From Schmidtea polychroa (Eukaryota), in NCBI GenBank assembly GCA_044892525.1, contig CM097885.1, forward strand, positions 68,758,001 through 68,822,000: a stretch of 64,000 nt of DNA, read 5' to 3'. Of the stretch, positions 5,211-62,827 are shown piece after piece. The notes beneath the pieces are model-generated. The model was given only the letters and a program-made list of their open reading frames with translations. It did no database searches and was not told where the DNA came from. Positions within the stretch are counted from its first letter, which is position 1. Every line of letters begins with the position of its first letter. The translations under genes were made by a program, and so were the position numbers.

Positions 5211-5470
5211 TATAAATAATAATCTGACCTATCTACTAAAATCTCTCTAATATTCTATCGAATATATTAACCTATTTTCTATAATGATTTATCATCATTT
5301 GTTATATAGTTCATTTGAATTAAATAACAAATGATGATAAATCCTTGTAGAAGTAACAATTAATAACAATTAGAAAAAGAATAAAACTTTAATTTTATTA
5401 TTTAACAGGTAGACTATATCCGAACTATTGCCAATCTTCAATTGGACATAGTGATAAATGTCATAGAACA

Positions 5471-9976: not shown

Positions 9977-10232
9977 TTGCAACGGGTACTAGTCATGCTT
10001 ATTATTGTTATACATTTGATGGTTACAATTTCTATATTTTGATTGGTTATCACAATTTTATAAATGTAAAAACAAAAGTAATTTATTTATTAATAATGAT
10101 TTATACAAATAAAACCGATGAATGTGTAACACATTTGGTAACTTTATTATTTTGTCAATATTTTTTTATATATGGCATTTATAGCAAGGAAGAAATAAGG
10201 AAAAATTAAGTCCGACCGATTCCGAAATTTCA

Positions 10233-10724
10233 ATGAAATTTTTTTACAACACAGTTGAAGATTTTATAAATAATCATGATGCTTACAGTGATAAGCAACT
10301 CATAAATATTTTAAAGATTTTCAAACATTCCTCTATTGAATATTTGTTTGATTTATTTAATTATGAGAAATCCATTTTAAAGTTATCTTGTTATTTAATG
10401 TACTTAGAAAAAATAGCAGTAAACAATGATTCACTGAATGAATACTTTTGGAGTTGTATGTTTTTAAGGTTGAAACCTGGATATAGTAGATTGATTTATG
10501 ATTGGATAGCGAAAGCCGATTTGATTGAAAATAAGCTAACGAAAAAACTGAGCGATGTTAAGAAAAGGTATTTAACTTGCTCAATTTGTAAAGAAAATCG
10601 AGTTTCGGTTTTGTATTTACCGTGCGGTCACGTAATTGTTTGTTCTAAGTGTAACGAGAAGATTGTTCGCAAGTGTCAAGCTTGTTCAACACTGATTAAT
10701 GAATATCATACTATATACATGTAA
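10233..10724 (+). CDS. RING-finger protein (IAP/MDM2-like C-terminal C3HC4 RING, no BIR), Polinton accessory gene
   Basis: CSICKENRVSVLYLPCGHVIVCSKCNEKIVRKCQACSTLI at the extreme C-terminus; lies between PolB and the TIR. Confidence 0.85.
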   Translation: MKFFYNTVEDFINNHDAYSDKQLINILKIFKHSSIEYLFDLFNYEKSILKLSCYLMYLEKIAVNNDSLNEYFWSCMFLRLKPGYSRLIYDWIAKADLIENKLTKKLSDVKKRYLTCSICKENRVSVLYLPCGHVIVCSKCNEKIVRKCQACSTLINEYHTIYM

Positions 10725-14649: not shown

Positions 14650-17600
14650 TGTTGGGCTAGAACTGATTTCTAGACCCAAACTTATAATTGTGACTGAAAT
14701 GTGTAGGTACACAACATGCAAAAAGCAAAAAGTATAGTTAAATATGAAAAATACACCAAATAAACAATAATGATTAAAAGGGAAACAACAAAAATATAAA
14801 CACAGAAATTAAATAAAATTATACAAAAGCAAGAAGTTATGCAAAATCTAACTCAAAAATAACCAAATAAACATAGAGTTACAAAAAACAAACTCGAATA
14901 ACTTGAAAGATGGTAAAAACAGTAAAAATTTCCAGAAAAACCCAGAACATTCCATAAAAATGGCGATGACCATCATAAAAGCTACTTTAAACAATAAAAT
15001 TTAGAAAAATAAATAAAAAGTAATAAAAAAAAAAAAAAAAAAAATCTTAAAAAGAAATTCATAAAACATCGATTGAAATAAACATTAAATTAAAAGTAAT
15101 ATAGAATGTTCTGGAACCGTTCCAAATCCATCATGGACGTAAAATTAACGAAAAATAATTAAAAAATAAAAATTTAAAAATAAAAACAAAAATTATGGCA
15201 CAAAAATCGCCATTAAAAATATCAAAATTACAAAATAGAAAATTCTGGAATAAAAAGAATTCGAGTTTGTTTTAATGCATCAATACATACACGTGTACAA
15301 AATAGGTATATATACCGACGCATTTTAGTCACAATTTAATCTTTTTGTATGCCAAAAATTTTCATCGAAAATCTAATTGACACCGAGAGTAAGCATTGTT
15401 GATTATATTTATTTTATGATTGTTCTTTTATCATTATAGTTCATTTTATTAATTATAATTTTATCCTTTTTTTTCATATTTGATTATTACTGAACAAGAG
15501 TGACTAGCGTCGTCGTGAATGGGTAGCATCCGCGACGCTGATCAGTCTTGTTTTCAACCAGTAGCCACATGCACAATTTTTGGGTCTACGACCCCACATG
15601 CATAAAAATTTAAACATTTTTTATTAACCGGAGGTCGTCACGAACAAATGGTTCTAACCAGGAGTAGGGCGGTAAACCCATACCGGTAGTTGGCATAGTC
15701 ATAGGGACTATGCGGACGACATAAACTGCGGGAAAGTAATCGCGGGAAACATAGCACAATAAGGCCTATCGTACCGTATTCAGTTGAGTCGGGAAAGTAG
15801 GAAAATTTTAATTAACTCGACCTTTCGGTAAACGACATACCAAAAATAAACACTTAATTCTTCTATAGGAAATATATCACTAGGAACATCTAAACGGGAA
15901 ATATCCCAGACTCAAATTAATACAGAGGCTTTCGATAGTCGGCTAATTGCATAAACCAATATCTAATATTAACAGATTTTAGTACTACTATTCATAATTT
16001 TATTCAATGTAATTTAGTTCACGTCCAATGTGTATTTTTATAAACTAAAATCCCTTCAAAATTTTTATTCTTACCTCTATGTGTATTGAAATTTAGTAGA
16101 CATAAAATCTTCAAAGAATTTTTTTGAGTCCTAATAACATTATCAACTTTGGTATCATTACTATTATCATGATTGATTTTCTAAAATTACATTAATAAAG
16201 GGTATATCATCCCCATATAATGGCATATATAAGTATATTAAACTTTCTTAATACATATTTACATTATGCTTAGAAAATGATAAATTATAAATTTTCTCAA
16301 ATGACCCCCGGAATATATATTCATCACCCAAATGTCCTAAATGAACTTATTTTAATATATAATTTTAGATAGTAATATGTTAAAATGATATTTTAGCAAT
16401 TTCCATCTTTAGGATCGTTATTATTATTATTATTAATTTTCTTAAAATTACCTTACTAAAGTGTATATTATTACCATATAAAAGCATATAGGAGTATTTC
16501 AAGTTTCCTTAATGTATATCTAACTTATATTATGTTTAGAAAAAGCTAAATTACAAGTTTCTTAAATGACCCCCCCCCCCCGAAATATACCTTCATTACC
16601 CATTGCATAAATATCCTGAATTAACTTATTTTAATATATATTTAGAATTGTAGTATGTTAAAAATGACGATTTATAAATTTTCATAAATACCCCTGCCAT
16701 AAATCAACTTATGATGATATAGAAGGATTACTTATAAATTTTCATAAATAACCCCTTTTTGATCCCTATAGTCCTTGAGGACTACCTGAAAGTGTTAGTT
16801 CAATTTGCTTCGGAACCTAGTTAACTTACATTACTCTTAGAAATATCATTGTAAAATGAGTCCATAATTTCCCGCAAGTGATTCCCATATGTGGTAACCC
16901 TATACACTACGAATTTATATTTATTAGTATCATCATTAACCTTATTGTCATTGTTATTATTAATGTTATTATCATTACTAATATTACCATTCTCATTGTT
17001 ATGATTATTACTATTATTATTATTATCATTATCTTCATCATTATTATTGATATTATTATTATAATGAATATTATTATTAATATCTTTCGTATCATTATTA
17101 TTACTATTATTATTACTACCATCATTATTAAGGTTATTATTATTACTGTTATTAGTGTTATTACCACATTTTCACCCTTGTCATTTCCATTATTATTATC
17201 CCTATCATTATTATTACATTATTAATCAATTATAAAATTCCCTCAAGTTCAAACTATTGGCTTACATTTCCACGGCATAGATCCAAAATTGAATAATGAA
17301 TAGAAATTCCCATCTAAACACCTTACAAAGTGAGTAAGTCGGCATAATTTGGGTTACCGCCAAACAGTAATATGCCGAATACTCTATCCGATGGAGGTGT
17401 CGTGCCCGAAACGGAGGGTTTGGAAATCCATTTCTGAAATAAAACGAATTTATCAGGATCAAAATTTGACTTACCCACTGAATAGCAATAGATGATCTGG
17501 CCACCTACAACCACTATGGACAGGGATTGCGGAGAGCCGAAATAAATTCGGACAATGCCGTTTTCCATAGTGGGTCTTAGTAGCATAATTTTGTTGAATA

Positions 17601-18015
17601 AAAGGAAAATTTTTTTTTTAAAAAAAAGGAAACTAATGTGAAATAACAAGTTAAACTTTTAAATAAGTTAAACAAGTTCATTCGAATATGCGATTTTAAA
17701 TTAATTTATGAAATTCTAATTTTTCTATTTTTTTTGTCCACCCTTAAGTTGTTAAACCCAATTTACCAATCGTTAATGTATGAACTTAATTTAATTCAGT
17801 AATCTGGATCTAATTTATTAAATTGGATATATGAACCAAATATGGAAATTAATTCGTAAATTAATATACTTTACCTACAAAATCATTGTCTGTTGAATTG
17901 GTTGTGTATTATGCTTGAATATAAATTGTAATGGGGTGTTTGGACATTTTGGAGTGATCGAACGTAAATAGAAGTACAAAGATTTGTTTTAATATTTTTT
18001 TTTATCATTACAGTC

Positions 18016-18396
18016 ATGTCCAATGCTGAATTAAGGAACGTACAGGTAGACCGCTCGTCGACCGACTTGAGCCTAGGAATTACCGGCGAGGGGGCAGACG
18101 AAGCCGTCCGATTGAGGGAGGACGCAGAAATCGCCCGGCTACGGTCCAGATGGATCTGGTACAAGATTCATGATTGGACCTACCAGAATGTGGTCCCGGT
18201 GATTCCAAAGGTGGAGCCATATCTCAATCATTCGGCATTGGCTTTGATCGACGCATTCGACGATGCGAAGGAGGCGGTGGACCGGTTGCATCGGCTCAAA
18301 ATATCAGTCCTGGCCGGCGAGCTGGAAGACATCGACGGCTACGCCCGAGCCCAATGTCATCCAAAACGAACCCAAGAAGACCTCAACGGGAACTAG
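18016..18396 (+). CDS. LTR-internal hypothetical ORF
   Basis: GC-rich 126-aa ORF directly after the acceptor TCATTACAG at 18013; no recognisable family. Confidence 0.5.
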   Translation: MSNAELRNVQVDRSSTDLSLGITGEGADEAVRLREDAEIARLRSRWIWYKIHDWTYQNVVPVIPKVEPYLNHSALALIDAFDDAKEAVDRLHRLKISVLAGELEDIDGYARAQCHPKRTQEDLNGN

Positions 18397-18920
18397 AACG
18401 ACTGGGAAAACGCCGACGCCCGCGAAAAACCGCCAGCTCGACCAAGGAGAGCACGGGATCGAAGGCTAGCGGGCGCGGTACGACTAACGTCCGTGTTGTG
18501 TCAAAACGAAGAACTTGTGATAAAAACTAATTATTATGTGATGACCCGTTATTGGGTGTATTGTGTGATATTATGTACTGGGTTAAGCATTTTTGATCCA
18601 GGGTTCGAATATTATTCGTTAGGTCTTAATAGTTCATAATTGTTTAATGTTTGTTTGTGTCTTGGTGGTCGATGATAACTTAATTGTGTGGATTGTTTGA
18701 TTCTTAGTAATGTTCATGACGTGGAGTATCATTATTGCTGACTACAATTTTCTATAGCGTTGACAGCCCTATAAGGTTGGGTAAGATACATAGGACTCGG
18801 TTTTGGGGGGCGCGTAGCCGAGGACTGCGACGAGGGGATTACCTTCATTTAGCATTGATACTCATAATAATGCTCGACCCTCGATGCTGATGTAACATTC
18901 ATTGATGTTATCTCGTTTTA

Positions 18921-19385
18921 GTGCTAAAACTCCTGGAAGAGATGCGAGCAGATAGGGAACGGGCGCAACAACAGGCAGAGGAATACCGGGCCAAGCTAAC
19001 ACGAGTCAAGGCCCACTGCCGGAATTTCGAATGCACCTGGTTCCCGCCAGCGGAAATGAAAAAACGGATGGAGTTGATCACTCAACTACAACTCCAGAGT
19101 GCACAAGATCAGGTTGAGTTGCGGGCCCTCCGCCTGAGAGTGAGGGAGCTGGAGGTCAAGGTACACCAACAGGACCTTGACCGAGAGGTCATTGCCAAGA
19201 TCCGACCCATGAGTGAGTTGCTCCACCAATCGAAGGGGTGCACCCCAGCAACAGCAATCCCGAGGAAAAAGATTCGGCCGGGTAAAGCGGCGCGAGCGAG
19301 AATAAGGCAAGCCAGCCAGGCCCAATTAACTCTCCATTCTACTGGATCAGAGGCTACACCAAGAGAATCGACCAGGACACTATAA
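18921..19385 (+). CDS. LTR-encoded accessory protein exon: coiled coil, ExTWF motif, Arg/Lys-rich tail
   Basis: Acceptor TTTTAG at 18921. Ungapped similarity to ORF 60271-60750. Tail PRKKIRPGKAARARIRQ; AATAAA at 19403. Confidence 0.65.
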   Translation: MLKLLEEMRADRERAQQQAEEYRAKLTRVKAHCRNFECTWFPPAEMKKRMELITQLQLQSAQDQVELRALRLRVRELEVKVHQQDLDREVIAKIRPMSELLHQSKGCTPATAIPRKKIRPGKAARARIRQASQAQLTLHSTGSEATPRESTRTL

Positions 19386-19492
19386 GTTGTCCATGTTGTC
19401 CGAATAAATCTTTACTGGTGTATCCATGTCTGTATCTTTTGATTTTTTTTTTATGATGATTATTGCCACGGGGACGAAAAGAAACCGGACAT

Positions 19493-19674
19493 AGACCTTC
19501 TATCGGTAGTCCGTGAACCCCAGTGGGTACTAGACAACTATAGTATGTTAAGCATGCTCACTTTTTGCTAGTGCCCAAACCCTTGATACAGTACCAACGT
19601 TGATTGCTCAACGGGTATCAAGTGGTCAGCTATGAATTGTATTCTGGGTTACGCTGGAAACAGCATGAGGAGGT
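19493..19674 (+). ncRNA. Conserved structured RNA motif, copy A
   Basis: AGACCTTCTA, GAACCC, GCTCAC and AGTACCAAC/GG boxes; stems GGGTACTAG/CTAGTGCCC, AGTATG/CATGCT, CTTGATAC/GTATCAAG and GTTGA/TCAAC. Confidence 0.7.
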
Positions 19675-19776
19675 AAAGATTTTTCAGTACCTGTAACCCA
19701 CCAATTGTATTTAAAATATGATAAAAATTCTCTTAGATTTATTTTCTTCAATTTTAGATTTAATTCAACTTTAAAT

Positions 19777-23990: not shown

Positions 23991-24824
23991 TCAGGATGTT
24001 GGGGGCGCCAAAACAGGAATAAAAATAAAACCTAATTGAGGTTCTGTTTTGGCCCATAATTATCATTAAAAATGTAAAATCCATTTAAACAAAAATCAAA
24101 CAAATTATAATTATTGTAACAAAACATAGAAAAAGATGGGTTAAATGATATGCAGAGACCAACCCTTACATTTCTAATCTCAGGGACGCTGGAAATAAAA
24201 AATAGTAACTAATCTGTACTTTTAAAAATAAAAATGTGCTTATGAAAAAGTAAACACTACTGACATATTTGAAAGCCACAAAAAATAACTATATAAATCA
24301 TAGTTTTCCTTAGTCAAATCACCAAAAATTGTAAGCTAAGAAGAGTTATACATTAATAGTGACTCTATAAAATCAATATCTGTTTAATATAAATAAATCT
24401 AATATAATATGTTAACGTAATCGCCAATAATTCGACAGAAAACATTTATCAAATAATCTCATATCTTTGATTTTTTTTACATTCGTAATCCGTAAAAACT
24501 TTTAACACATAAGTCCGAAGTAGATGACAACAAAAAACATTAAGTAAAAAATAAAACGACACAAAGACGAGAGAAAGTGAGTCGCAATATCTTCTACGGT
24601 AGCTCATGAACCGAGAGGTTCTTCGGGTCATTAACAGTTCTTATTGTGAGCTCATCTTTTACCGACAGTCACTTGCTAAATCCACTACTAACTTGCGATA
24701 ACGGTGTAGTGGCTGATTGAAATAATTATGCGTGGTTGCTAGTGTTGGTTACTTAGGGGTGTGTCATTTTTACATTTTAGAATACGTTAAGGGTAATCAT
24801 AATCGTTCGACTCTTTCCTAAGCA

Positions 24825-24990
24825 CCTCCATGACTATTGCAATTTAAACCATTTGTGTACCCATGGCGACGACCATGTTGGTACTGTACACAAATGTGAA
24901 AAAACAATGAGCAGGTGAGCTCTATTACTAAAACTACTCCCCATTGTATTTTCTTTTCGGGTTCTAAACTGCCGATAGAAGGTCTTACGT
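24825..24990 (-). ncRNA. Conserved structured RNA motif, copy C
   Basis: Minus strand GTAAGACCTTCTA...GAACCC...AGTAGT...GCTCACCT...CATTTGTGTAC-AGTACCAAC-ATGG...CCAT-GG-GTACACAAATG...TGGAGG. Confidence 0.7.
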
Positions 24991-25830
24991 CATTATTCAC
25001 TATGTATGCTGTTTTAAGATCATTTGTGGTCCTCAATTACGGGTATTTCCAATTATTCTCTTATAAAACTTTGCACAGGGATCCGCCCTTATTTTCCATC
25101 TAATAATTATTGTTCTATACTTCCTATAATATCCAAATTATCCTTCAAAAAATTTGAGCAGGGATTGGCCCTTATTTCCAAGTTAATCCACACTTCCCAT
25201 AATATTTAAATTATTCTGCAAAAAATTTGCGCAGGGATCTGCCTGTATTTCTAAGTAAAACCTATTTCCGACTAGAAAATACTTACGGAGACGGACCAGG
25301 GGATAAGCCTCCTCGTTATGACCCGATCAATCCGTGAGAATCTGAAAAGCCAGCTGACCTACTCACAATAGGAACCACCAGTGTCCCTTAAGCTGTGGCC
25401 TACTGGATCTCAGCTTCACTGTAACTATTTTTCATAAATAATAAGCCTAACAATTGAACCAAATAAAAATTATTATCCAAAACTTAAAAATTAAATGAAA
25501 ATTAAACAATTTAACAACTAAACTAAATTGAATAAAAAATTTATTTAACTTAAAACATTACATAAAAATTTCATATTAAAATAAAATTAACCAGTCCAAT
25601 CCACGATGGCATAAAATCGAAAATTGAGAGCATATGTTCACTACCTGACAAACGATTTGTGGTGTAAATCTGAAAACTAATTTAACAAGTTCAACAACTG
25701 AAATTTCAATCCGTATTTATACTGATTGAATTGTACGCCTACGCATTCTCTGCTACTATATCCAATTAGAATGCGAGGCAATTCTGATTAATTTTTGCAT
25801 GCATGCGTGAATGTGTGCAATTGTTTATTT

Positions 25831-28766
25831 CAGTGTTTCGAACCCCGAAAATTATGGGTTCGGGTTCGGGTTCGGGTTCAATGGAATAAAATTTAATGGG
25901 TTCGGGTTCGGTTCGGGTTTGGGTTCGGTTCGGGTTTGGGTTCAGGTTCAAATTAAAAAAAGCGAAATTTTTAATTAATATTTTATTTTGAATATATAGA
26001 AATATATATCAGTATTAAAGTATTATATAATATTATTTAATTTATTTTTGGAAAAAATTTTCATTAAGTCTAACAAATAAAATGTTTCTTAAAGAATCAA
26101 CACTTAAATGTATTCTTTGTGGAGCTAAAATTAGTTTCAGCGCAGAAAATGCCCTCTCGACGCTGACTTGTGTAGCAGGAACAGCAAATACAATCTGAGC
26201 AGCTTCATAAAGTAATGGTGTTTCCATTTTTTTTTGCTCCCAGAATTCTAAAATATTTTTGTCTTTAGGAAGCCTGGGATAGCTTTCATAAATATCGATT
26301 TCGGTTTTGAAAGCCATACAAGCATTGGATTTGTTAAAATTTTTCGGCATTGATGCTGCAGCTGATATAGAATTTTTTTCTTTGTTCTTTAGCATTTCTT
26401 CCAGCATGTCTGCTTCTTCATCTGAGGAACTAGAGATTAAATTGGAAGTGATAGTAGTTTCGCTAGTTCGTGCTTTATTTTCAGTTTCCAGATGTAAATC
26501 TTTTAATTTTCTTATTGTGGATAAAATGTGATTTTGAGCTTTGGTTGTATTATCATCATTAAGCATCAATTTGAATCTAGGATCTAAATATATGGCGGCG
26601 TTTAAAAGTTCATTATCTATAAATGATTTTTCTCGTTTAATAATATTTGAATATAAATCTGCACCTAATTTTTTATTCGTGATTTTTTGTAAATCTAATT
26701 TAAACTTCAACCACAGCCCATAAAAATCTCCTAAATTCATCTGCTCATTTTGTAACTGCAAAGTTAACTTTTAAATGGCTCTAAAATTTCAACAAAATCT
26801 GAAATAAATTGCCACATATTTTCATTCATGCTTAGATCAGGATCTACTACATCTAAACAAAAAGTTTTATAATCCAACAAGCGTTTGAGCATATCGAAGG
26901 TGGAATTCCACCGAGTTGGACAATCCAACATAGCTTTCTTTAAGCCCAACTTTTTAGCTAATGAAGCTCTATTAGGTGTCCTCAACTTTTTGGAAATATC
27001 TCTGCATGTGGCAATCTTTTTTTTTACTGAAGAGTTACTAGTAGTGTCATAAACTGCTAATTGAGCAGTATGGGCTACGCACCTAAAATGAATAATATTA
27101 CCATATAAATTAGACAACATTTCCAGACCTTCTTCTTCATTCTCAACTATTAATTCCTCATCTTCATCTTCTACTTCTTCAAGGTCAGAAACTTCTTGAA
27201 ACTCATCTCTTAACAGCTCAGCCGCTTTAAGCATGTTTCTACCATTATCTGAAGTAACTGAATAAACTTGGCTTAATTGTATATCGTAAGATTGGATTAC
27301 TTCAATTATCACATTTTTTATGTAATTAGCTGTTTGACGATCGTCAACCTCATGCATGGCTAAAGTTCTCAAATTAATTTTTCCATTGTTAATGAACTGA
27401 ATATTTATGCCAATTACGCTTCTACCAAGCCGGGATGCTGAATCAATTTTTACAGATATTAATTTTTTTTTCAACTCGCCTTTAATCAAATTTTTCATTT
27501 CAATAGCCTTATTATTTACTAAATCCTTAATATTTTCAGAATTTACAGCCAGTTTTAATGATTTCATTATCGGTTCTATTATATCACGCATGCCAGAATC
27601 TTTGAAAATAGTAAACGGGCGCCCATTAACGGTAACTAATTTTATGCAGGCATCAGTGAAATATTTTGATGACATATTAATTTTAATCAAATTGAAATAA
27701 TTTTCAATGGAAACTGAATTTGTATCCTGAAGTTTAAACTTTTTGGTGGTTTGTGATGTAGACTCTTCAGTTATATTTCGATATTCATCAGGATGTTTCC
27801 GTTTGATATGGCGACCCAGATTTGCAGTATGTTTACCTTTCATAGAAAAAGAGCATTTTGTACATATTGACTGGTCTTTGATAGAATCATATTCGAAAAA
27901 TTTTTTTAAATGGTTTGCTGACATCTGAAGGACAAAAATTTTTTTTTAATATAATTTATAATTAAAAATAAAAACCGTAAAATGGAAAATTTTTTAATTA
28001 ATTACTACAAAAATTTAAGCACCTAAATTTATGTTAAAAAAGTTCCCACAAACATATATTCGAAGAAATATATTCGCAAGTTAAAAAAAAATTAATTAAA
28101 AAAGCGCGCTGGAATAAAACAAATGCATACATAAGTTGTAGTTAGTTATAGTTACCTTAATGTTTTATCCAAGTTTTTTCTGTAATACAGTATTTTTAAT
28201 TTTTTAATATTTATTTTCAATTAATTAATTTATTTAGCATCACACTTTTTTAAATATTACACACTTTTTAAATAATAGTATAATAATCAGGCTACAAATT
28301 TCTTTGACTGTTGAAATTGGAATAATTTTTCTTTCTGATTTTTAAATTTAATTTGAAAATGGAGAAAATAATATAATCACTATAACAACAATCTAGATTT
28401 GATGAACACTAGATGAAAATGATAAAAATAATATACATAAATCGCGACGATGTAATCAATACAAAAGTTTGTAACAAAACCAAATGTAAATTTGTTCATG
28501 TTCATTCACGCACGATTTACGGAACATTCATGTTCTGAGAAACAAACAAAAAATAAGAAAAATGTTTCTTAGAAAAAAATACATTTTTTCATTTTTTTTG
28601 TTATTCAGGAATAAAAAATTTCTCAAAAAAAATTAAAAAAAATTAAAAAAATGTTTTTTTTATAGAACCTGAACCCGGTTTTTGAATGGGTTCGGGATCG
28701 GTTCGGGTTCACAAATTTGTTTGAACCGGAGCGGGTTTTGGGTTCGGGTTCGGGTTCGAAACACTG
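25831..28766 (-). mobile_element. hAT DNA transposon, full length (2936 bp)
   Basis: TIR CAGTGTTTCGAACC; perfect 8-bp TSD GTTTATTT (25823-25830, 28767-28774); subterminal GGGTTC repeats. Confidence 0.95.
26042..27924 (-). CDS. hAT transposase (Ac/ZBED4-like) with one in-frame stop at 26764-26766
   Basis: BED finger CTKC...RHIKRKH, KIDS, TSDNG, CVAH, TRWNS and SVERAFS. ORFs 26764-27924 and 26042-26761 are in the same frame. Confidence 0.9.
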
Positions 28767-30014
28767 GTTTATTTTTTAATTTAATTAATCAAAATTCTAT
28801 TTTTTATTAATTTTTAAGATTTATTTTTATAATTCTATAATTTAAATGGTTTTTGCTAATTTTAATTTAGTTTTACAAGTTTTTATAATTTAAATAAGTT
28901 TAGTTAACTTTAATTTAGTTTCATTGATTTAAACAATCTGGTTTTATAAATTTTATAATTCATCTAATTTTTCTACTTTTATTCCACTTTTTATCATTTT
29001 ATCAGTTTAATCGATATTTTATTTTAAATTTTAAATTTATTTATTTAACAATTTTTCATATTATAAATTAATTTATTATCCATTATTTTATTATTATTTT
29101 TTTTTGTTAGCTATTCCGAATGCGATATTTCTCCTAACTGTGTTAGTGATCGCGACCTTTATTTGCGTTCCTTTATTTTATTACCCGGTCTTATTTATCA
29201 TCAATGTGTTATGTACTTTAATTTGTATTGATTGGTGTTCTAATTTAACTTGGTGCGATTTTTTTGTTATATATTTTTGATTCATTAAAACAAGCTCTCA
29301 ATTCTCGGTTCCAGCCCAACACCAGTGGAACGCGAAGACTGCGAAAATGTTGAGCAGATAAGCAGCTGGAAGGGATGGATTCTCTCAACACGTAACTCAC
29401 CATTACTAAAATTTCTAATGACGGGTAGAGGCTGGTAACTTCATGTTTTTGATTGGTTTTGCGTCGGTTGATAATTGATTTATATTAATGAAAACAATAA
29501 ATTGGTTTCATGCTTACTTTAGATGAAGGAAAAATATATATTATTATAATAAAATCAATATTTCCCTCATTTCCGCTAAATTCAATCACATATTAATTTT
29601 CATTTTGTAATATTTAATTAGGTTGTTTGAAAATTTTAATTTAAATAAAATTTAATAAGATATATTTGTTTCACTCAAATTATTAAGTATTATCGAAATT
29701 AGTTTTAATGATTAGTTTATTTGCATATCTAAATTCAAATAATTATATTTAATAATGAATAAGTGTGATTACATGTATAATGAATTGTGCGAAATTCTCT
29801 TGAACGAGATTAAAAATTTCGAATTGTCATGTAAAGAGCTTGAAGAAAGTAAAATTGAATTATGAACAATTTCCTTGATTTGGTTATTTAGTTTTTAACC
29901 CTGCATTGCCACGAATTGCAAGATATCAATCAATCTCTGAATTTGAGGTGCAAGCTGCCGATCTAAAGAAGATATTTCATAAAAAATTTAAAAAATGTGT
30001 GGTATTGGGAAGGT

Positions 30015-36817: not shown

Positions 36818-39611
36818 GTAACTGTGTCGTCATACTTAGTGGTCACTGGTTGCTAACACACACACATCTAGTCCAGTACTAATCATACAACACACACATA
36901 CTACTATTATGTGAGAGTCCAGTACTAATGATTTGTGTATAGTTCAACACACACACACATCGACTACTATTATGCGAGAGTCCAGTACTATTTACTACTC
37001 TATGTGAGGATCCAGTACTATTCATACAACACACATCGACTACTAGTCTATGTGAGGATCCAGTACTATTCATACAACACACACACACATCGACTACTAG
37101 TCTATGTGAGGATCCAGTACTATTCATACAACACACACACACATCGACTACTAGTCTATGTGAGGATCCAGTACTATTCATACAACAACAACACACACAC
37201 ACATCTAGGACACTGGTGGTCTATATAAGAATCCAGTACTATTGACTACTCTATGTGAACATCAGTACTATTCATACAACCGATTACGACCAGTGCTAAA
37301 ATACAAGCACGACCAAGACCACGACCACGAACACGAACACGACCACGACCACGAGTACATCGATACAAACACTTCTCTGAGAGCTGATTCAACCAATAAC
37401 CTAGATAAGAACTACTTTAAGCTTTTAAATAATAGTCTTTATGGAAAATCAGTGGAAAATCTTAAAAAACGGATGAATTTGAGATTATGTAATTCTGCTG
37501 AAAAAATGATTACATATTCTTCAAAGCTGTCTTTTAGAAAGTGTATCAAAATTGATGACAATCTGATTGCAGCACATCTGAATAAAGATTTGATTTGTTT
37601 AGATAGACCTAGTTATATAGGTCAAACAGTTCTAGATCTATCGAAATTAAGGATGTATCAGCTTCAGTATCTTGAATTAGCTAAATATCGAAATCAATTC
37701 AATTGTAAGATTGACATTGTTGCTGGCGACACTGACTCTTTCTTCCTTGAAATTAAGAATTGCAAGTTAACTACACTTCTACCTGCAATGATTTCAGATA
37801 ATCTTTTGGATACTTCCAATTATGACTCTAACCATCCATTGTATTCAAGAAATCTTGACTCAGTAATAGGTATATTCAAAGATGAGAGTAAGGGACTTGG
37901 ATATAAAGAATGGGTTTTCTTGAGACCAAAATGCTATAGTCTTTTAGGTGAAACTGAAAGTAATAAAGCAAAAGGAATTACTTTGAAAGGAACTGAGATA
38001 AAACATCTTTCTTATCTTGACTGTTATGAGAACAATAAAATCTTTTCTGTAACTCAAACTCTAATAGGAACTCGAAATCATCAGTTGTTTACGTTTAAGA
38101 ATTGTAAAATTGCGTTAAGTAACAACGATGATAAACGACACTGGGTTGGTAAAAATAAAAGTTTTGCATACGGGTATAATTTAGATGTCAACCAAGATGA
38201 TGATGCCAACTATGAAGATGATCCAGAATTGATCGAGATTGATTTTAATGATCGAGATTTTATATGAAATAAATTTTTGTATTTTGAAAACTGTCTTTTT
38301 ATTATTTAATTAAATTAATTTAAAAATTATAGCTTTGGTTTGAGAATAAATCTGTTTGCTTCAAAAGTAATTTTATAAGTAATCGTGCTTTGATTTATAT
38401 AAATTATTATTATTATTATTATTATTTTGTGGGACTGATGGCTAAGTGGGAATTTACTTTTTGGTTTTTTGTTTTGACGTTAGGTATGAGGTTCAATTCC
38501 AAGTATGGGCGACTTTTTTCAAAATTAATTTTTACATGTTATTTCTAATATAGATCGAATCAGCATGCTTTATTTGCTATGAATTGAAATTTTCATAAAA
38601 ATCGGTTAATTATTTTTACTTAAAGGTTCATAGTATTTTCTCACCTACTGGCATAAAATGCAGTAAACAATCATTAAATAATAATTGATATTAATTTTCA
38701 GACGATTTGGGGATTTATTTTATTATACTTTGTGATTTCATTAAATATTTTGTGTTGTACCCTTTAAATAACAATAGAAAAATTTCATCTATTGACCATT
38801 TTTAATATAAGGTATGCAAACGTTATGAAATGTATAAAACAAGGAAAATGATCCATTTATAATACATAGAAACTAATAGTAGTAGTAGTAGTAGTAGCTG
38901 TCGTTGTCGTAGTCGTGGTCGTGGTTGTGGTTGTGGTCGTGGTCGTGGTCGTGTTCGTGGTTTTATTTTAGCATTGGTCGTACTCGGTTGTATGAATAGT
39001 AGTCAATAGTACTGGATTCTTATATAGACTACCAGTGTCCTAGATGTGTGTGTGTGTTGTTGTTGTATGAATAGTACTGGATCCTCACATAGACTAGTAG
39101 TCGATGTGTTTTGTATGAATAATACTGGATGTTCACATAGAGTAGTCAACAGATCCTTATATAGAGTAGTCGATGTGTGTGTGTATTGTACTATACACTA
39201 ATCATTAGTACTGGACTCTCACATAATAGTAGTATGTGTGTGTTGTATGAATAGTACTGGACTAGATGTGTGTTAGCAACCAGTGACCACTAAGTATGAC
39301 GACACAGTTACCATGGTATTGAGTCATCAATAAGTGGTCAGTTAGGAACAGGTTAGTATATGACGTAATGGATACGTGAGTGGTCAGTTAGTAACAATGT
39401 GTGTATGACGTAATGGGCACGTGACTGGTCAGTTAGTAACCATGTCTGTATTACGTAAAGGTCACCGTGTGGTTAGTTAGCAACTGACCTTTATATTACA
39501 TAATGGCCACGCGATTGGTCAGTTAGCAACAGTGTGTATATTACGTAATCGGTCATTATTACATAACCGATATCCCCCCTTTTGTATCTGAAGGGCTCAC
39601 ATCCCTCTACT
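36818..39611 (+). mobile_element. Internally deleted Polinton derivative: inverted arms around a PolB C-terminal fragment
   Basis: 36818-~37350 is inverted relative to ~38900-39311. The right arm continues to terminal CTCTACT at 39611; the outer part of the left arm is missing. Confidence 0.75.
37357..38267 (+). pseudogene. pPolB C-terminal third (second, diverged family)
   Basis: From YIDTNT onward it aligns with 5471-9445 (KLLNNSLYGK, AGDTDS, PKCY); fused in frame to TIR repeat sequence. Confidence 0.9.
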
Positions 39612-49891: not shown

Positions 49892-50966
49892 AGTAGGTAG
49901 TTATGTGCACTCTAGATCCAGATACCCCCCTATTTTTTTTAAAAATTTTTTTAAAAGACCCCCACCACATAATTTTCTTTTAATTTTTAAAATATCCCCC
50001 CTACTTTTTTTTTTAAATTTAAATTTTTGTTTTAATTATCGATTACGTAATAATTTCATTTTTTGTTTTAATCATTGATTACGAATTTTTTTTGTTTTAA
50101 TTATTGATTACGTAATATTTTAATTTGTTTTAATCGTCGATTATGTAACAATTCCTAAATTTTTAAAACGTTGATTACGTCATTGATTTTAATTTTTTAT
50201 GTCATTATACTTGAAATTTAATTTTCTGTTAAATGAGACTATGATGTAATCAAAATTCTGAAATTTCATTTTTAGTACACCATTTTTAAATTTACACATC
50301 TTTTTAAACAAATTGAGATATGTTCACTCAAACAATATATAGATAGAATTTTAATCTCTATAAAATGACATCATTATTTACTGCAAATTCATAATCATAA
50401 CACCTTAAACAATGTATTTTTCAGCCAACTTTTACATACACACATATTTTCATCTTTTAAAAAAAAAATACAAATTATTCATCTATACTTAACTCATAGT
50501 AAATAATTATATTAAAAGACATATTAAAAGATGTATTAAAAACTAAACATTTATTAAAATCCTAGAGAAATTCGATCACTATCTAATTTCCAAATCGGTG
50601 ATATGACATCTTTCTCATCTATTTTATATCCCTGTATTGACATATTTACAAACCAGCTTTCCCCATCTTTATATTCAATTTTATATAACAAAGACATATT
50701 GCATACAAAGACACACATGACTCATCATACTTTTTAAATATATTACGTTGCGGTATTTTAAAATTTAAATTTATTTTAAAAACTTGTTTTGACGGTTAAG
50801 TTGACAAAATAAAATTATTGCACATACTTTGTATTATCATATATAGTCTATCAGACAAGATATTCTGTTCCCCTAAGGGTAATGGTCACAAAGGTACTGC
50901 TAAAACTTTAACATATTATTACACACAATGTATAAAAAATCTTATTAGTGTCCACACATGCAACAA

Positions 50967-51032
<66 letters not shown>

Positions 51033-51576
51033 TTCAAAGTATTATAATTATATATAGTCCGAGTCTATCCGACAAGATATTCTGTCCCCCTATGGGTAAT
51101 GGTCACAAAAGTAAAGGTCACAAAGGTAAAGGTCACAAATGTACTGTTAAAAATATTCAAGACAGAACTTTAACAAAGAAATTCTAAATATTATACTTTA
51201 AATATACACTAAAATTTATTAACACATTGGGTAATGGTCGCAAAGGTAAAGGTAACTAATGTACTGCTCGCAAAGGTACTACTCACATTCAACGTGTCGT
51301 AAATTATTTTCAAATACAATTTCAAAGTATTATTATTATTTATTATTAAAATTAAAATTATTATTAAATTCTGACCAACTTAAATCAATGAAGGGGTAGG
51401 ACAAAAATATATTACGTTGCGGTATTTTAAAATTTAAATATATTTTAAAAAACTTATTTTGACACTAAAGTTTACTTATTTAACAAAGACATAATTATTG
51501 CACATGCTTTGCATAAATATTATTATTATTTTTTGAATTTTCAATATTTTCTTTCAAAGTATTAACACGCGCGGGA

Positions 51577-51621
<45 letters not shown>

Positions 51622-52177
51622 GTATTTCCCCTATAATAAGACCTACCTAGAAAATAAGACCTAGCATGAATTATTCGCCCACAAAAAATATAAGACCTAC
51701 CTTGAAAGATCTGTTTACTTATTTACATAACGAAAAAAATAGTAATTTTAATTCAAATTAGCCATAAATATATGCTTTAAACTTTACGTTGAATGTGAGT
51801 AGTACCTTTGCGAGCAGTACATTAGTAACCTTTACCTTTGCGACCATTACCCAATGTGTTAATAAATTTTAGTGTATATTTAAAGTATAATATTTAGAAT
51901 TTCTTTGTTAAAGTTCTGTCTTGAATATTTTTAACAGTACCTTTGCGACCTTTGTGACCTTTACCTTTGTAACCATTACCCAATGTGTTAATAAATTTGA
52001 GTGTATATTTAAAGTATAATATTTAGAATTTCTTTGTTAAAGTTTTGTCTTGAATATTTTTAGCAGTACATTTGTGACCTTTACCTTTGTGACCTTTACT
52101 TTTGTGACCATTACCCATAGGGGGACAGAATATCTTGTCGGATAGACTCGGACTATATATAATTATAATACTTTGAA

Positions 52178-52246
<69 letters not shown>

Positions 52247-53255
52247 TTGTTGCATGTGTGGACACTAATAAGATTTTTTATACATTGTGTGTAATAATAT
52301 GTTAAAGTTTTAGCAGTACCTTTGTGACCATTACCCTTAGGGGAACAGAATATCTTGTCTGATAGACTATATATGATAATACAAAGTATGTGCAATAATT
52401 TTATTTTGTCAACTTAACCGTCAAAACAAGTTTTTAAAATAAATTTAAATTTTAAAATACCGCAACGTAATATATTTAAAAAGTATGATGAGTCATGTGT
52501 GTCTTTGATATGCAATATGTCTTTGTTATATAAAATTGAATATAAAGATGGGGAAAGCTGGTTTGTAAATATGTCAATACAGGGATATAGAATAGATGAG
52601 AAAGATGTCATATCACCGATTTGGAAATTAGATAGTGATCGAATTTCTCTAGGATTTTAATAAATGTTTAGTTTTTAATACATCTTTTAATATGTCTTTT
52701 AATATAATTATTTACTATGAGTTAAGTATAGATGAATAATTTGTATTTTTTTTTTAAAAGTTGAAAATATGTGTGTATGTAAAAGTTGGCTGAAAAATAC
52801 ATTGTTTAAGGTGTTATGATTATGAATTTGCAGTAAATAATGATGTCATTTTATAGAGATTAAAATTCTATCTATATATTGTTTGAGTGAACATATCTCA
52901 ATTTGTTTAAAAAGATGTGTAAATTTAAAAATGGTGTACTAAAAATGAAATTTCAGAATTTTGATTACATCATAGTCTCATTTAACAGAAAATTAAATTT
53001 CAAGTATAATGACATAAAAAATTCTTATAAAAAATTAAAATCAATGACGTAATCAACGTTTTAAAAATTTAGGAATTGTTACATAATCGACGATTAAAAC
53101 AAATGAAATTATTACGTAATCGATAATTAAAACAAAAATTTTAAAAAAAAAGTAGGGGGGGATATTTTAAAAATTAAAAAAAAATTATGGGGGGAGCTCT
53201 TTTAAAAAAAACAGGGGGGGGGTATCTGGATCTAGAGTGCACATAACTACCTACT
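49892..53255. mobile_element. Non-autonomous palindromic mini-Polinton (3364 bp)
   Basis: Termini AGTAGGTAG...CTACCTACT; perfect 6-bp TSD TATATT (49886-49891, 53256-53261); TIRs ~49892-51296 and ~51786-53255; no genes. Confidence 0.92.
51619..51710 (+). repeat. pogo/Tc2-like MITE end in the mini-Polinton spacer
   Basis: TACCGTATTTCCCC...ATAAGACCT repeats. Confidence 0.45.
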
Positions 53256-57315: not shown

Positions 57316-60270
57316 TGTTGGGCCAAGCTTTGAGAGTGTTGAAAATCAAGTCAAAGACGAAAAAAGAGACCACGCGAAGGAATAGAATAAATAAAAATAA
57401 AGTTTACAGGGAACTACAGAGAAAAATAGGAAGAAATAAATCAAATAACAATAAAAAGATAGGAATAAGTAATAAAAACAATAAAACTTTTAAGATGGAA
57501 AATAGGACAAAAGGAAATTACCCAATAAAGCGTAACAATGAAAGGAAAATAAAATAGCAAAATTTAAGAAAAATAAACGAGAAATTAAAGAAATAAAATA
57601 GAAATAAAACCATTCTCAAATAAATGCATAGACTAATTAAAACAAAGATTATATTACAATAAAATAGCAATAAATCCGCGGGAAAAATAGGAGAAAAATA
57701 ATAAAAAATAGGAAAATGAATAAAATAATAATAAAAAATAGGTAAGGTCGTTAAAATCTAGTATATTACAATAAAAAAACATATAAATAATAATAAATAA
57801 CAACATTACAAACAAATCGTCTCCTGATTGGACGAAAAATACCATATAAGAAACGCAAAATAGTTGTAGAGTACCATTTAACCAAAAAACAGGTAAAATT
57901 TTGTATTTTGATACACGACCATTTAACCAAAAAACTCTACAGGATTTAGGAACCACTTCTTAACCAAACAGGACTAGTAGCAGCATAGCAAGCAACACTT
58001 ATACTGACAATTCGACTACAAAGATCTAACCAAGTCAAAGAAAATCATCGTTCAAATCTAATACTCGAAAGCTTGAATTTTCAACACTCTCGGAGAAACT
58101 TTTAGTAAGTTATGCTGAATTATTGAATGTTATTATGATATTATTATGTAAAGAACGATAAGGCAAAACATTTTATTTTAATAAAATTTGTATAAAAGCT
58201 GACTCTCTTTCTCTATGGTATTGACGACGATGTCGTCTGGGGATCGGATGTGATGTGGCGAACTTGGACGTATGGCGAAGAAGATGTATGAGAACGAATG
58301 CCAGGATATGAGAGACTTGAATGGAGTGGTTACATGAAATGAAGTGTTATATGAATCGAACACCTGAGGTGAAATGGCATCATCATGAGGCATCATATCC
58401 GAAACTCAGACGGGTGGTCGCCAGGTAAATAGTTTTTTATTTAACCAGTATGTTTTCAGTCGAGTAGATTTATTTATTGAATTATTTCATTGTTCTGCGA
58501 TAATTGTTATGATATAATTGATGGAGATTGATGGAAGAGATAGATTCGTCCTTCCTGGCGGTCTAAGAGCGGTGGCAGAAATGTATGCCCTTCTTGGGTG
58601 GGTCATGAGGGGTAAGGACATCTAGCGAGAGGCGAAAATGTGTTGCGAAAAATCATTTCACCGATTGAGATCCGTTACTCTTGCCGTCGGAAATTATTTT
58701 TCCTTGACAATTGGTAGTCATAAAGCTTAATGCCAAGGATGAATTCGCAGAGAACTCTAGGAGAAATTTCAACTTGAAAATCGTCTACACTAGATCCAAT
58801 GGCAAATATTTTGAGCTTCGATTTTGATGATAACTATTTCTTACGTTTTCGAACAGTCGTTGTTTAGATATTCTCTAATAGAGATCGTTATTCTTGCGAA
58901 AATTCCAACAAGGTTCGTATTAAATGTCATAACAATCGGAATTTTCCAGGATTTGTATCGCCAGGGCATTCGCAGTTAGATCCATCATCGATGCACTTTT
59001 AGGATGAATTGCCGTTCTCGATTTACCGTTATCAGCGATAAGCGTTTTCTTGACAGTAAAGTAAACATTTCGTGATGAATTATCAAAACACTTACCATAA
59101 GCCTAAAAGCAACGGTCGTCGGAAATATCGTGAAATCGTCGGTTAATCTCAGTCAGCTGAGAGTCATGCATAGTAAATAGCCGATAATATTTCGATAAGA
59201 GAGATTGAGCATTGGTTTCTGGTGGACGTCGTTGAACGAACGAATTGATAGTTGTTATCCTGAATCAACATATTAGAAGGGAATCGGATTGTCGAATTAA
59301 GCTCACCTGTTAAACTCATGATTAACCCACTTACCCGTCGTGATAAATTTCCTTCCCCGGTTTTCGTCTAATATTGCTGATTATCAGGAGAAACCTGCAG
59401 AGATCCCAAATGGTATGAATTGAGAAATACCCAAACACTACGTCATATGTATCGATCGTCATGCACAACATTACACACATACCTCATCTGGTTGAACACA
59501 GTGCATACGATGACATCACAATCACATAATAACATGAATTTTCTCTGAAATAGCGAGACTGCATGTAGGAGTAAAGAATTAGATTCCATCAACTCAAAAT
59601 AATATAACTATGAATTTCCTCCAATAGTACAGACAGATAGTTGATCATGTAGCATATGTATCTTGACAAGCATAACGAGACTTAACAGCACACCTAGAAA
59701 ATAAGAGTAATACACAACTACACCCGAGTAGGTGTCACCGGGGTAGCATTTCCAGCGCAAAATTTAAAATAATCAAAATTATAATTTATAACTTGGTTTT
59801 AATAATATATTTAAATCGTCTTATAACTTTAATCGGGCCTAATACAGCACAGGTAGTCACAAGTGACATCGAATTATTCTTCCATAACACTACGCACGTA
59901 TAAATTTACAAAACATAGTGGCGAAATCCAAATTATTAAATAATAAGAAAGGAAATAAAGGGGATAGAACCGATAGAAATAAATGAATAAACGAGTATCG
60001 TATGGAATTTGTCAAATTCGGAAGCAAATCTAAAGGTTGAGTTTATATCGATTGAATTATTTTTCTTATATTCTTTTTCTTGAGTTGCAGGGATTGGGTG
60101 AATTAATTTGAATGTCTGCGGTTAAACGAATGTGAGTGTTGATAGATAGTACAGATTTTTGTATCATCGCTGAATCGGAGGATTGATCAGATTATAAAGC
60201 CTGCATCCAACCTTGTAAATGTCACATAATCGAATGTTTCGAATAAAAATAAAAACTGTTCCATCTTTAG

Positions 60271-60998
60271 ATGTCTACACCGACCAACACCAACAAGGAG
60301 CTTCGCCCGTGTTTCTCTTGTGCAGACAAGAACGCGGATATTGCACAACTTCACCTATACATCGGGGCTCTCAAAAAACGTATAGATCTGTACGAAGGAA
60401 CGTGGTTCTCCACGCCACAGATGAAAGAAGAGCGGAGTAAAATTCTGAGATTGGAGCACTGTCGAGACAGTCTTCTGGAGGAGAGCCGCTGTCAGAGGCT
60501 AACAATAAAAGCTCAATCCGAAGCTCTCCACAAAGTTTATACGGAGGCAGAACTGGTAAAACGAGTGCGTGAATACCCAATTAAGGATGGAGCAAATGTA
60601 TTCCATACCCACCACCAGTCCTCAGAATCTTCCACATCCGGTTGCCATGGGCATGGCCCACATCTGCCACCTATTCCAGCCCCAGTGCTATCGGGTTATC
60701 AACCGATGGCAGGGGCTCTTCTGATCCTATCCTGGCCCCAGTTCTCGTAGCAACCGTCGTAACATCTTCAGTAGAAAACAACCCGCCGCCTTGGAAACGG
60801 AAGCGACCGACTAGATCGGAAAAGAATCAAAAGCGTAAACGCTATGGCCGCACTCGAAGAGTCATTATCGGTGGCACGGTCGACAATTAAAGAAATATCT
60901 TCTACGCACTCAATCCCGACGAAGGAAGTTTTCGAATAGTTCCGGCCGAAGGAATCAAGTACATTTCGGATCGTCGGCTACCGGTCGACATCGATTAA
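60271..60998 (+). CDS. LTR-encoded accessory protein (coiled coil, ExTWF motif, basic tail), frameshifted or degenerate at the 3' end
   Basis: ATG directly after acceptor CTTTAG; YEGTWFSTPQMKEE aligns with LTR A ORF; alternative frame 60642-60890 carries KRKRPTRSEKNQKRKRYGRTRR. Confidence 0.65.
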
Positions 60999-61324
60999 AT
61001 GATCGCCGAAGGGGAAGGCTTCGTTTAAATCATTTTACAATCGGTCTCGATTTTCTTTCCGAGTTGCCAATCGACATTATGAAAATCTGATAGTGCTGTA
61101 TATTTTAACTTATTTGAAATTGGTTGATAGACAAATTGTTGTGATTAAATTTTCTTTCTGTTTCAATATATTTTTTTTCTAAATTTTTCGTTGTGGTTAC
61201 TTTTCGATATGTATGATTACGTGGTCAGCGTGAATGAAAGGGTGATTTTGAAGGAATGTAATTAGATTAAAGGTCGTCCCCTTGGACCAGGGTCGAGTTA
61301 TGCGAGGTATGCGAGTAGATATGG

Positions 61325-61486
61325 GTAAGACCTTCTAAGGCACCGTGGAACCCGAACCGAGAGTGGGTTAACAGTAGTCCTAAGGTAGGAACTCACCTAT
61401 TAACCGACTCCAACCCGTGTGAGCAGTACCAACGTGTAACATCACCACGGGCTCACATGAGGGAGTATCAGTGAAATCATTAGGAG
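61325..61486 (+). ncRNA. Conserved structured RNA motif, copy B
   Basis: Same boxes as copies A and C; stems GAGTGGGTTAACAG/CTATTAACCGACTC, CGTGTGAGC/GCTCACATG, GTG/CAC and CTTCTAA/TTAGGAG. Confidence 0.7.
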
Positions 61487-62809
61487 TATGTCGGGAAAGG
61501 GCCTGAGCAGGATGAAAATGATAGTGTGTTCTGTGATACTATTTTTCTTTTCCCCACATACGCCAACAAATCTATTGTAACTAAAACTTCTTCATTTATA
61601 TCGAATTCTCAGTGTATCCGGTTGTCATTTTTATAATTTAAAAATTTCTTTGTTTTGATTGCACTTCCTCCACTATTTTACTTCTATCGTTGTATATTCT
61701 TTTATTATTGTTCCATTCTCTAGATATCCGAAACTTAAATACTGATTCTGATGGACTTTTTCCAATTGTGCTTTGAATAGTGTTGAGGTCTGTAAATTAA
61801 AATTAAAAATTTAAATAAAATTTAGGATAATAATTCAAATGGAAAGTAAGCGAGGAAAAAAGGCAAATAAAAGCGGGATCGTGTACAGAATCAATAGTAA
61901 AGGAAAGTGTGATGGAAACAGTATTAGAAAATGCAAAAAGCAATTACGAAAGGCGAGAATCCGGAAATCCGAGAAAAATCAATAAATGGAAAAATCATCG
62001 AAATCGAATGGGAAAAACGGGACAGGTATAGATTAGCTAATGGTCAACAAGATGATGGTTAGGGATTTACCAGAAAAGGGTTAGGAAGGGTCGAAAAACA
62101 TTCAAACGTATGAAAACAGAAAACGTTAATTAATTAATTGGCTAATGGAGAACCCGAGAGATAAAGGAAACCCGAGCTGGGTAAACAAGAAGAAAGGCAA
62201 ACAAAAGGAAGATTTGGGCCCATCAGCTTGACACAATGATTAATGGGAAAAGAGTAAGGAGAAGATAGCGCGCGTAGGAAGACCGGTAGGGCCATTAATT
62301 ATCTGGATTCGTTGGACCATTATGGGTGACAGCCGAAGCAAACAAGTAGGAGAAAATGTCAAACGAAAGATTGGCTCGGCAATAACCATTTGTCATCCTG
62401 ATTTCGAGGAGTATATAAGCAAAAGGGAAATCAGAGAAAATCGGCATTTTGCCTCAGGTAGGGTAAGAAGAATCGAGAATAGTCGAGAGGTAAAAACGAA
62501 TTTAGGGAAGTAGGGTAAAGAAGAAAAAGAATTAAGAATACGGAAAGGTGAAAAGGGATCAAACCAAACAGAAACCGAGGAAAACGTGAATCGAGAGAAG
62601 CTAAAGGATCGAAAGGTGAACATTGTTTGTTTGCAAAGCATCAACGCCGAGCGGAGAATCGTATAAAACTTTGATCAGTAATTGTAGCGTGATAATCAAT
62701 TGTGAACCTGTTGTTTCAATATACGTTGGGTCGTTCATTGTTTTGATTTAAAGAACACTAGGAGTCAGAGAGAACCGACTTGAAATAATCCAAAACCCAA
62801 CATATATTA

Positions 62810-62827
62810 TGGTGAGCCCGACGTGAT
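62810..62827 (+). promoter_or_regulatory. Primer-binding site, tRNA-Trp
   Basis: TGGTGAGCCCGACGTGAT is one base from the complement of the animal tRNA-Trp 3' end (ATCACGTCGGGGTCACCA); 7 nt after the LTR end. Confidence 0.85.

Follow-up and report, generated by a model that had tools for sequence, protein, structure and literature searches.

The window analysed here, 64,000 nt of Schmidtea polychroa DNA, contains three solo LTRs, each of which holds towards its 3' end one copy of a candidate structured RNA motif (copies 1 to 3, Table 1). Copy 3 is carried by the LTR of a Burro-type Gypsy element, which starts with TGTTGGGC, ends with CCAACA and has the 4-bp target duplication AATC on either side, and of which the part at 60307-61568 is ~70% alike to the LTR of a 30.5-kb element found in L037-L040. 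The LTR with copy 1 represents a second Burro-type family, and an element in L276-L278 that has fusion, RT, RH, IN, MATH and ankyrin domains is bordered by LTRs of this type. Copy 2 lies in an LTR that is 71-81% alike to that of a 15.6-kb element (L034/L035), contains hAT ORFs at 26042-27945, and is flanked by CTGG and CTAG, with one mismatch between them. An earlier note on this DNA had placed the copies in giant LTRs, and while this is correct for two carriers (5054 and 4253 bp), the LTR of the copy 2 family measures 1645 bp and has been lengthened by hAT at this site. None of the three copies is followed by a primer-binding site (PBS), all being solo LTRs, and because of this the link to a tRNA-Pro PBS described below was missing from the earlier note; the gag gene at 63107 is that of a separate element, whose LTR is at 61781-62802.

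Paired copies of the motif mark the 1645-bp LTRs of the 15.6-kb element (L034/L035) and the 4175-bp LTRs of the ~30.5-kb element (L037-L040), which in both cases are bounded by TG...CA and 4-bp target duplications. On the coding strand, the distance from the motif start to the LTR 3' end is ~250 nt, or ~210 nt in the copy 1 family. According to Pfam matches, the large elements encode gag, a fusion glycoprotein, PR, RT, RH, IN, ankyrin and MATH domains (L038, L039, L276, L277), with the fusion glycoprotein located between gag and pol; a zinc-knuckle ORF was found in the 15.6-kb element, but no match to RT. The planarian Burro/GYPSM1 elements are described as >30 kb long, with 4-5 kb LTRs and the same list of protein domains (PMC6431247), and the carriers share with them the size, LTR length, gag zinc knuckles, a fusion glycoprotein before the protease, RT, RNase H, integrase, ankyrin and MATH, the class being set by this description, which likewise points to a planarian as the host. 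They differ in that the excerpt of PMC6431247 gives proteins and size and no LTR RNA structure, and in that the domain is here also present in the 15.6-kb RT-less derivative. In Burro-type Gypsy elements and an RT-less derivative, the LTRs end in a conserved tail, and this is the folded stretch.

The giant LTRs also hold ORFs upstream of the domain (60271-60750, 17968-18396 and 18906-19385 in the window, and a 254-aa ORF at 5325-6086 of L037), for which there was no Pfam match; the ATG of the ORF in the copy 3 LTR is preceded by a pyrimidine run and AG, resembling a splice acceptor. Elsewhere in the window, a 1350-aa ORF and a 352-aa ORF (5393-9445 and 37209-38267) share 71% DNA identity over 830 nt and resemble by eye the remnants of protein-primed polymerases, followed by a RING-finger ORF (10185-10724). 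The stretches 50089-53138, 36818-39311 and 11060-12009 contain long inverted repeats (1209 nt at 97% and 318 nt at 86%) as well as a palindromic satellite rich in TGAGTCA.

Table 1. Positions of the carrier LTRs, the domain and its helices, and primer-related sites; positions are those of the window unless a sequence label is given
Feature	Position	Strand	Remarks
Solo LTR, 5054 bp, second Burro-type family	14650..19703	+	Carrier of copy 1; target duplication ATTG
Solo LTR of the 1645-bp-LTR family	24743..29321	-	Carrier of copy 2; hAT-interrupted
Solo LTR, 4253 bp, Burro-type Gypsy	57316..61568	+	Carrier of copy 3; TG...CA
Copy 1 domain, P1 to LTR end	19487..19703	+	P4 5' strand from near 19637
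Copy 2 domain, P1 to LTR end	24743..24991	-	
AGACCTTCTA box	19493, 24985(-), 61328		Copies 1, 2, 3
GAACCC box	19515, 24964(-), 61348		Copies 1, 2, 3
CTCAC box	19557, 24919(-), 61392		Copies 1, 2, 3
AGTACCAAC box	19590, 24885(-), 61425		Copies 1, 2, 3
P1, copy 3	61322..61345	+	3-bp covarying stem, internal loop, CC/GG stem, apical loop UUCUAA (T-loop-like)
Linker box GAACCCG, copy 3	61348..61354	+	Between P1 and P2
P2, copy 3	61359..61411	+	Long hairpin with conserved U / CAC internal loop
P3, copy 3	61414..61463	+	Hairpin with asymmetric loop AGUACCAA opposite G
Predicted P4 5' strand, copy 3	61475..61492	+	RTYRT box, then G-rich run (the GGAG of the earlier note)
LTR end, inner half of predicted P4 3' strand, copy 3	61556..61568	+	Directly followed by the target duplication
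Trp-primed LTR sites	62753-62769 and 62810-62827; L225, L228, L231		
D-arm and anticodon-arm complements	L124, L100, L126, L156, L093		

Folding and covariation of helices P1 to P3

The boxes named in the earlier note are found in copies 1 to 3 in the order and at the places it gave, as are its three 3' helices with their caps, and two copies (2 and 3) do start with GTAAGA. Pairwise identity among the three copies is 47-57% over the model, and a self-comparison of the window gave no long DNA match common to them. Two of the boxes are less general than proposed: GAACCC is present in the three window copies and in 28/30 PBS-anchored copies but in only 20 of 68 diverse rows, being missing from a whole group of families, and the closing GGAG is not a common box, as it occurs in only 10/68 non-redundant rows and, in copy 1 (19669), at another place. 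The length of ~160-180 nt given for the domain was too short, since it extends to the LTR end, ~30-80 nt past the earlier coordinates. Folded to the LTR end, copies 1 and 2 reached z-scores of -3.2 and -3.65, and they scored 110 and 153 bits with model R1, in the building set of which both were included; copy 3 alone (61319-61486) folded no better than its shuffles (z -0.69).

Three pairs of P1 are formed in 61/67, 66/67 and 51/67 rows and show compensatory types, and a fourth is formed in 20/67. The apical loop reads UUCUA plus 1-2 nt across families, with U at the first base in 68/68 rows and A at the fifth in 67/68, in a sample partly chosen by loop sequence; the T-loop pattern (U at position 1, A at position 5, a closing pair and a few extra bases) is found in 30/30 PBS-anchored copies. 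The middle helix, P2, covaries as was claimed previously, with changes on both sides in 12 of the 13 lower pairs and three of the six upper pairs. P3 has the loop consensus AGYACCAA opposite one G, and the pairs beside this loop switch between A-U and G-C (e.g. 56 vs 49 of 115 rows).

For 40 pairs in 36 diverse rows (set A2, which is the 44-row set A1 minus 8 rows that were degenerate or had long insertions), 81.9% were paired vs 65.4% after shuffling, and the covariation score was 0.503 vs 0.211 (0/500 shuffles) and 0.11-0.16 in slid controls, the structure having been derived from the same alignments as were counted and the shuffle test being inflated by relatedness. The values for 115 model-aligned rows were 84.4% and 0.541, in an alignment which leans towards the model. 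Removal of rows >88% identical or with >10% gaps from these 115 matches left 68 rows (<88% identity, mean 56%), where the top eight APC-corrected MI pairs were all helix pairs, as were 15 of the top 20 by eye. These tests across families bear out the earlier proposal of a covarying RNA structure in the LTRs. The linker is joined to the bases downstream of P3 by one additional pair, which occurs in 42/46 rows with four common pair types and may indicate a three-way junction, although it depends on the alignment and is absent in the copy 1 family.

G-U cells outnumber A-C cells (274 vs 84), which favours the sense-strand RNA of the element. This bears on the suggestion that the domain regulates a splice donor, which would be either the GTAAG in P1 or CAGGTGAG on the antisense strand. 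While GTAAG is present in 42/68 rows and CTCACCTG reads as a consensus donor on the other strand, the abundant copy 1 family has no GT at this place, CTCAC is already accounted for by P2, and the G-U usage points to the sense strand, so that splice regulation is a weak candidate and scarcely credible as the main role. Contigs of presumed-RNA runs cover parts of the LTR with no listed joint at the GTAAG site, such contigs being unable to show ends or absence.

The earlier note also listed a ribozyme among its candidates, and a compact fold of several helices with many unpaired yet invariant bases would suit a new self-cleaving or branching ribozyme. The CC-UUC...-GG hairpin looks slightly like P3/L3 of HDV-like ribozymes, the likeness being that of a short stem with a pyrimidine-rich loop of 6-7 nt inside P1, followed by a long hairpin. 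The P1 of HDV-like ribozymes has ~7 bp, whereas only three pairs are supported here. Such ribozymes need a nested double pseudoknot (PMC4908430), and the domain failed this topology test, with no P2 pseudoknot: columns 7-13, which hold the P1 internal loop, formed no helix of at least 4 bp with any column downstream in at least 70% of rows. A comparison with Rfam, proposed earlier as a check on novelty, gave eight weak matches at E up to 1, none overlapping any copy, so that no copy matched the hammerhead, twister, pistol, hatchet, hairpin or retroviral leader families. Cleavage within U5 would moreover be expected to part R from the PBS in the 5' leader, thereby blocking strand transfer. A ribozyme is very improbable, and the domain is likely to serve as a hitherto undescribed signal in replication, and not to cut itself.

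Likenesses to several other motifs were considered as well and dropped as too short or without covariation, i.e. the branch point/U2, the U1 5' end, the 18S 3' end, the constitutive transport element, HCV IRES loop E and group II intron domain 5.

Copy number, the primer-binding site and a predicted helix P4

A pattern of two 10-mers spaced by 60-90 nt had 1345 matches in the 781-Mb source genome and none when reversed, far more than chance would give, and two non-overlapping patterns from the 3' half had 1057 and 1271 matches vs 0 and 1 for controls, with only forward-strand matches counted, as double listing inflates the figures for the reverse strand. Judged by exact patterns, the domain is present in thousands of copies in this genome; the model search took in 100 of ~290 sequence sources. 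Viral and metagenome contigs gave 2 and 16 pattern matches, respectively, which are regarded as chance because they were without the middle boxes by eye and the best model score was 13 bits (E 0.24); these contigs contained no copies of the domain outside the source genome.

In 5' LTRs, the LTR end is followed by a spacer of 7-8 nt and then by an 18-nt PBS which matches the host tRNA-Pro(TGG) and (AGG) genes, as read from L220 and L286. The motif is located 110-170 nt upstream of this tRNA-Pro PBS wherever a PBS follows (25/174 distinct stretches). A search with the PBS only, which avoids selecting on the motif, gave 740 matches, and all 30 loci sampled from them contain the motif, with the exact P3 box in 24/30. 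Among 14 further PBS loci, which were picked by eye as unusual, the motif was whole in 11, had internal deletions in two and was absent from one. No model match to the domain was obtained in the tRNA-Trp-primed sister LTRs (n=4). The tRNA genes themselves occur in long single-type tandem arrays, with units of 475 bp for Pro(TGG), 284 bp for Trp and 442 bp for Pro(CGG), from C1:130.90 Mb, C4:55.02 Mb and C3:142.54 Mb onward and with 821-2190 pattern matches per search.

The stretch with the motif is probably U5, and hence would be included in the 5' leader of the genomic RNA: no AATAAA was present between the motif and the LTR end in 4/4 LTRs, but the TATA and AATAAA candidates differ between families. 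The earlier note let CTTCT pair with GGAG to close the domain, but no offset had four columns paired in at least 75% of rows, and the predicted partner of the G-rich strand is the LTR end. PBS-bearing copies would form a helix P4, in which the RTYRT box and the G-rich run are paired with the LTR end plus the 7-8 nt pre-PBS spacer, and the spacer is paired in P4 in 29/30 MFE folds of the PBS-anchored loci; the solo LTR of copy 3 is without the PBS and the outer half of P4, i.e. the spacer. Box and partner change together between families (TCAT/ATGA, TTAT/ATAA and TTGTAT/ATACAA). The P4 5' strand has a pairing energy of -14.9 kcal/mol with its own end, -13.9 within the same family and -7.8 with another family, and its own end was best in 16/18 cases with hand-set families, or in 10/18 with automatic, partly wrong family labels. 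Removal of the spacer costs P4 ~4-8 kcal/mol, and since the spacer is not part of the LTR, the domain would fold completely only at the 5' LTR, in the 5' leader. P4 is thus predicted to close the domain just before the tRNA-Pro start site for reverse transcription. An alternative in which the RTYRT box is the complement of the tRNA D arm was dropped, as P4 explains the box better because its partner changes with it.

A spacer of 7-8 nt between LTR and PBS is found in both the Pro- and Trp-primed clades (e.g. L034 4452-4458 and window 62803-62809), where 2 nt is usual, and this bears on integrase end processing. At the other end of the elements, three Pro-primed families (L035 6685-6729, L039 8791-8835 and L278 5588-5632) have no purine tract before the 3' LTR and instead share a 7-bp hairpin, a GGGYCCC run and GAGTG, whereas the Trp-primed element has an ordinary purine tract, so plus-strand priming may be unusual in the Pro-primed families. 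Upstream of the 3' LTR there are also GTG and GTTGG, which by complementarity could pair with the domain loops CAC and CCAAC.

Candidate primer contacts in the Pro and Trp clades

Pairing between tRNA and template outside the PBS is a common need of retroelements (PMC5371799), and in HIV-1 the primer activation signal (PAS), defined by raising tRNA-primed but not oligonucleotide-primed initiation, pairs with the T arm of the primer (PMC1865047). In host tRNA-Pro, the 5' strand of the T arm is the complement of the GAACCC(G) box, and the two may pair in a PAS-like manner. Complementarity of the whole domain to nt 1-56 of tRNA-Pro was not significant (138 vs 101.7 +/- 27.4, 39/400 shuffles), and the non-primer tRNA-Trp scored alike with the Pro-clade domain (33/400 shuffles). 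The tRNA-Trp-primed LTRs contain boxes complementary to tRNA-Trp, with 28 6-mer matches vs 7.9 +/- 4.5 (0/1000 shuffles) in a comparison of four LTRs of which two are close, while the tRNA-Pro control on the same LTRs gave 120/1000 shuffles. Their T-arm box, which reads GAACAC or GACACG vs GAACCC in the Pro clade, lies 40-60 nt upstream of the LTR end, and after it come 9-10 nt complementary to the anticodon arm of tRNA-Trp. Extended primer pairing is well supported in the Trp clade, and only suggested in the Pro clade.

Other complements were noted besides these boxes. Stretches of 8-9 nt complementary to the D arm of tRNA-Pro are located ~45-60 nt upstream of the LTR end in several families, and in older copies of the copy 2 family stretches of 8-10 nt close to the LTR end are complementary to the anticodon arm of Pro(AGG); both types also have partners within the LTR, so that a switch is possible. 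In most families ACCTTCT is a perfect complement of tRNA-Trp 40-46, which we take as coincidence, the elements being Pro-primed.

We interpret the domain as a U5/PBS leader domain for primer loading and initiation, and put the probability of this at roughly 0.6. P4 would join the RTYRT box and G-rich run to the LTR end and spacer, so that P1 to P3 are set beside the PBS, much as by the U5-IR stem of retroviruses. The tRNA-Pro would then anneal by its 3' 18 nt, which would free the 5' strand of its T arm for pairing with the single-stranded GAACCC(G) box, as with a PAS, and we propose that the near-invariant loops UUCUA, CAC and AGYACCAA/G lock the tertiary fold or bind the tRNA, Gag or RT. The domain is kept in the RT-less derivative, as expected of a cis signal. 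This primer model leaves the most invariant loops unexplained, and the site beside the PBS fits packaging or dimerization equally well.

In the main rival reading, the domain would be read chiefly by Gag as a packaging or dimerization signal, or be a nuclear export element, with its adjacency to the PBS reflecting the clustering of leader signals. Invariant asymmetric loops are typical protein-binding sites, and the RT-less element which keeps the domain still encodes a zinc-knuckle protein. Retroviral packaging signals are mostly downstream of the PBS, though, the alignment contains no conserved palindromic loop, and both the covariation of P4 with the spacer and the primer-matched boxes of the Trp clade are left unexplained. 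Even with the precedent of the 5' region of Ty1, where packaging, dimerization and initiation signals overlap (PMC4974528), we regard a mainly Gag-read signal as unlikely.

A more elaborate version of primer recognition would be an RNA clamp which, like a T-box, reads the whole tRNA-Pro by shape and anticodon and captures it before annealing. In its layout, the P1 T-loop would contact the elbow, the CCAA of the P3 loop the UGG anticodon loop and the PAS-like strand the T arm, with P4 docking the complex on the PBS. CCAA is complementary to the anticodon loop encoded by the PBS-matching tRNA-Pro(TGG) genes, but a match of 4 nt is weak, and the first bases of the LTR itself are just as complementary to CCAAC. 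Pairing with the anticodon arm in the Trp clade agrees with a clamp, as does the isolated covarying pair outside the helices (42/46 rows), which points to a compact tertiary fold; against it, none of the families with the domain was found to use another primer, so that no codon switch was seen, and the sample was largely chosen by the loop sequence itself. Elbow recognition in T-boxes, RNase P and the L1 stalk is by two interdigitated T-loops (PMC4810234), and the domain offers a single candidate. On balance a clamp appears quite improbable, though less so than a ribozyme, and the U5/PBS leader domain for primer loading is the reading retained in the comparison below.

Comparison with known RNA systems

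The literature searched, which consisted of titles and the openings of abstracts, reported no RNA structure in Burro or planarian LTRs, and the original Burro paper and Repbase may bear on this. Detailed leader structures exist for a few retroviruses and yeast Ty1, and the RNA structure of Ty3 has been called uncharacterized (PMC4974528). The thousands of copies from many diverged families constitute a natural covariation data set for the leader of an animal Gypsy element, here with four helices and three invariant loops, and raise the questions of how the tRNA primer of an enveloped Gypsy element is selected and activated, and whether this tRNA is read by an RNA fold or by a protein, for which the Trp-primed sister clade is a built-in contrast. 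If this is only the usual U5 stem system, it is still an uncatalogued RNA family and a clade marker; if the clamp were true, a T-box-like device would have been built anew in an animal retrovirus-like element.

Similarity to Stem I of the T-box consists of a U-N-N-N-A pentaloop candidate on a stem together with a loop containing the codon of the cognate tRNA (PMC4810234), but the domain has one T-loop candidate, resides in a eukaryotic retroelement and has no terminator, and the likeness lies in the sequence pattern, a T-loop proper being further marked by reverse Hoogsteen U-A geometry, a U-turn and a stacking gap. With Ty1 and Ty3 the domain shares template parts outside the PBS that are complementary to the T, D or anticodon arms, and a structured 5' region tied to initiation (PMC5371799, PMC4974528); the differences are that the PBS is here a continuous 18-mer and not bipartite, that no pseudoknot was detected in the domain, and that the extra tRNA-Pro matches are not significant overall.

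The closest parallels are with the retroviral leader. In the U5-IR and U5-PBS stems, bases of the LTR are paired with LTR-adjacent bases just before the PBS (PMC3601003), as they are in the predicted P4, and as with the HIV-1 PAS there is a short upstream box complementary to the T arm of the primer, which differs between clades with different primers. The domain differs from both in its size of 210-280 nt, in its three further covarying hairpins, invariant loops and 7-8 nt spacer, and in having no sequence or Rfam similarity to them, while its PAS-like box is not universal and is known here from the sequence. From these comparisons, the domain most likely works like a retroviral U5/PBS domain, but with an elaborate fold of its own.
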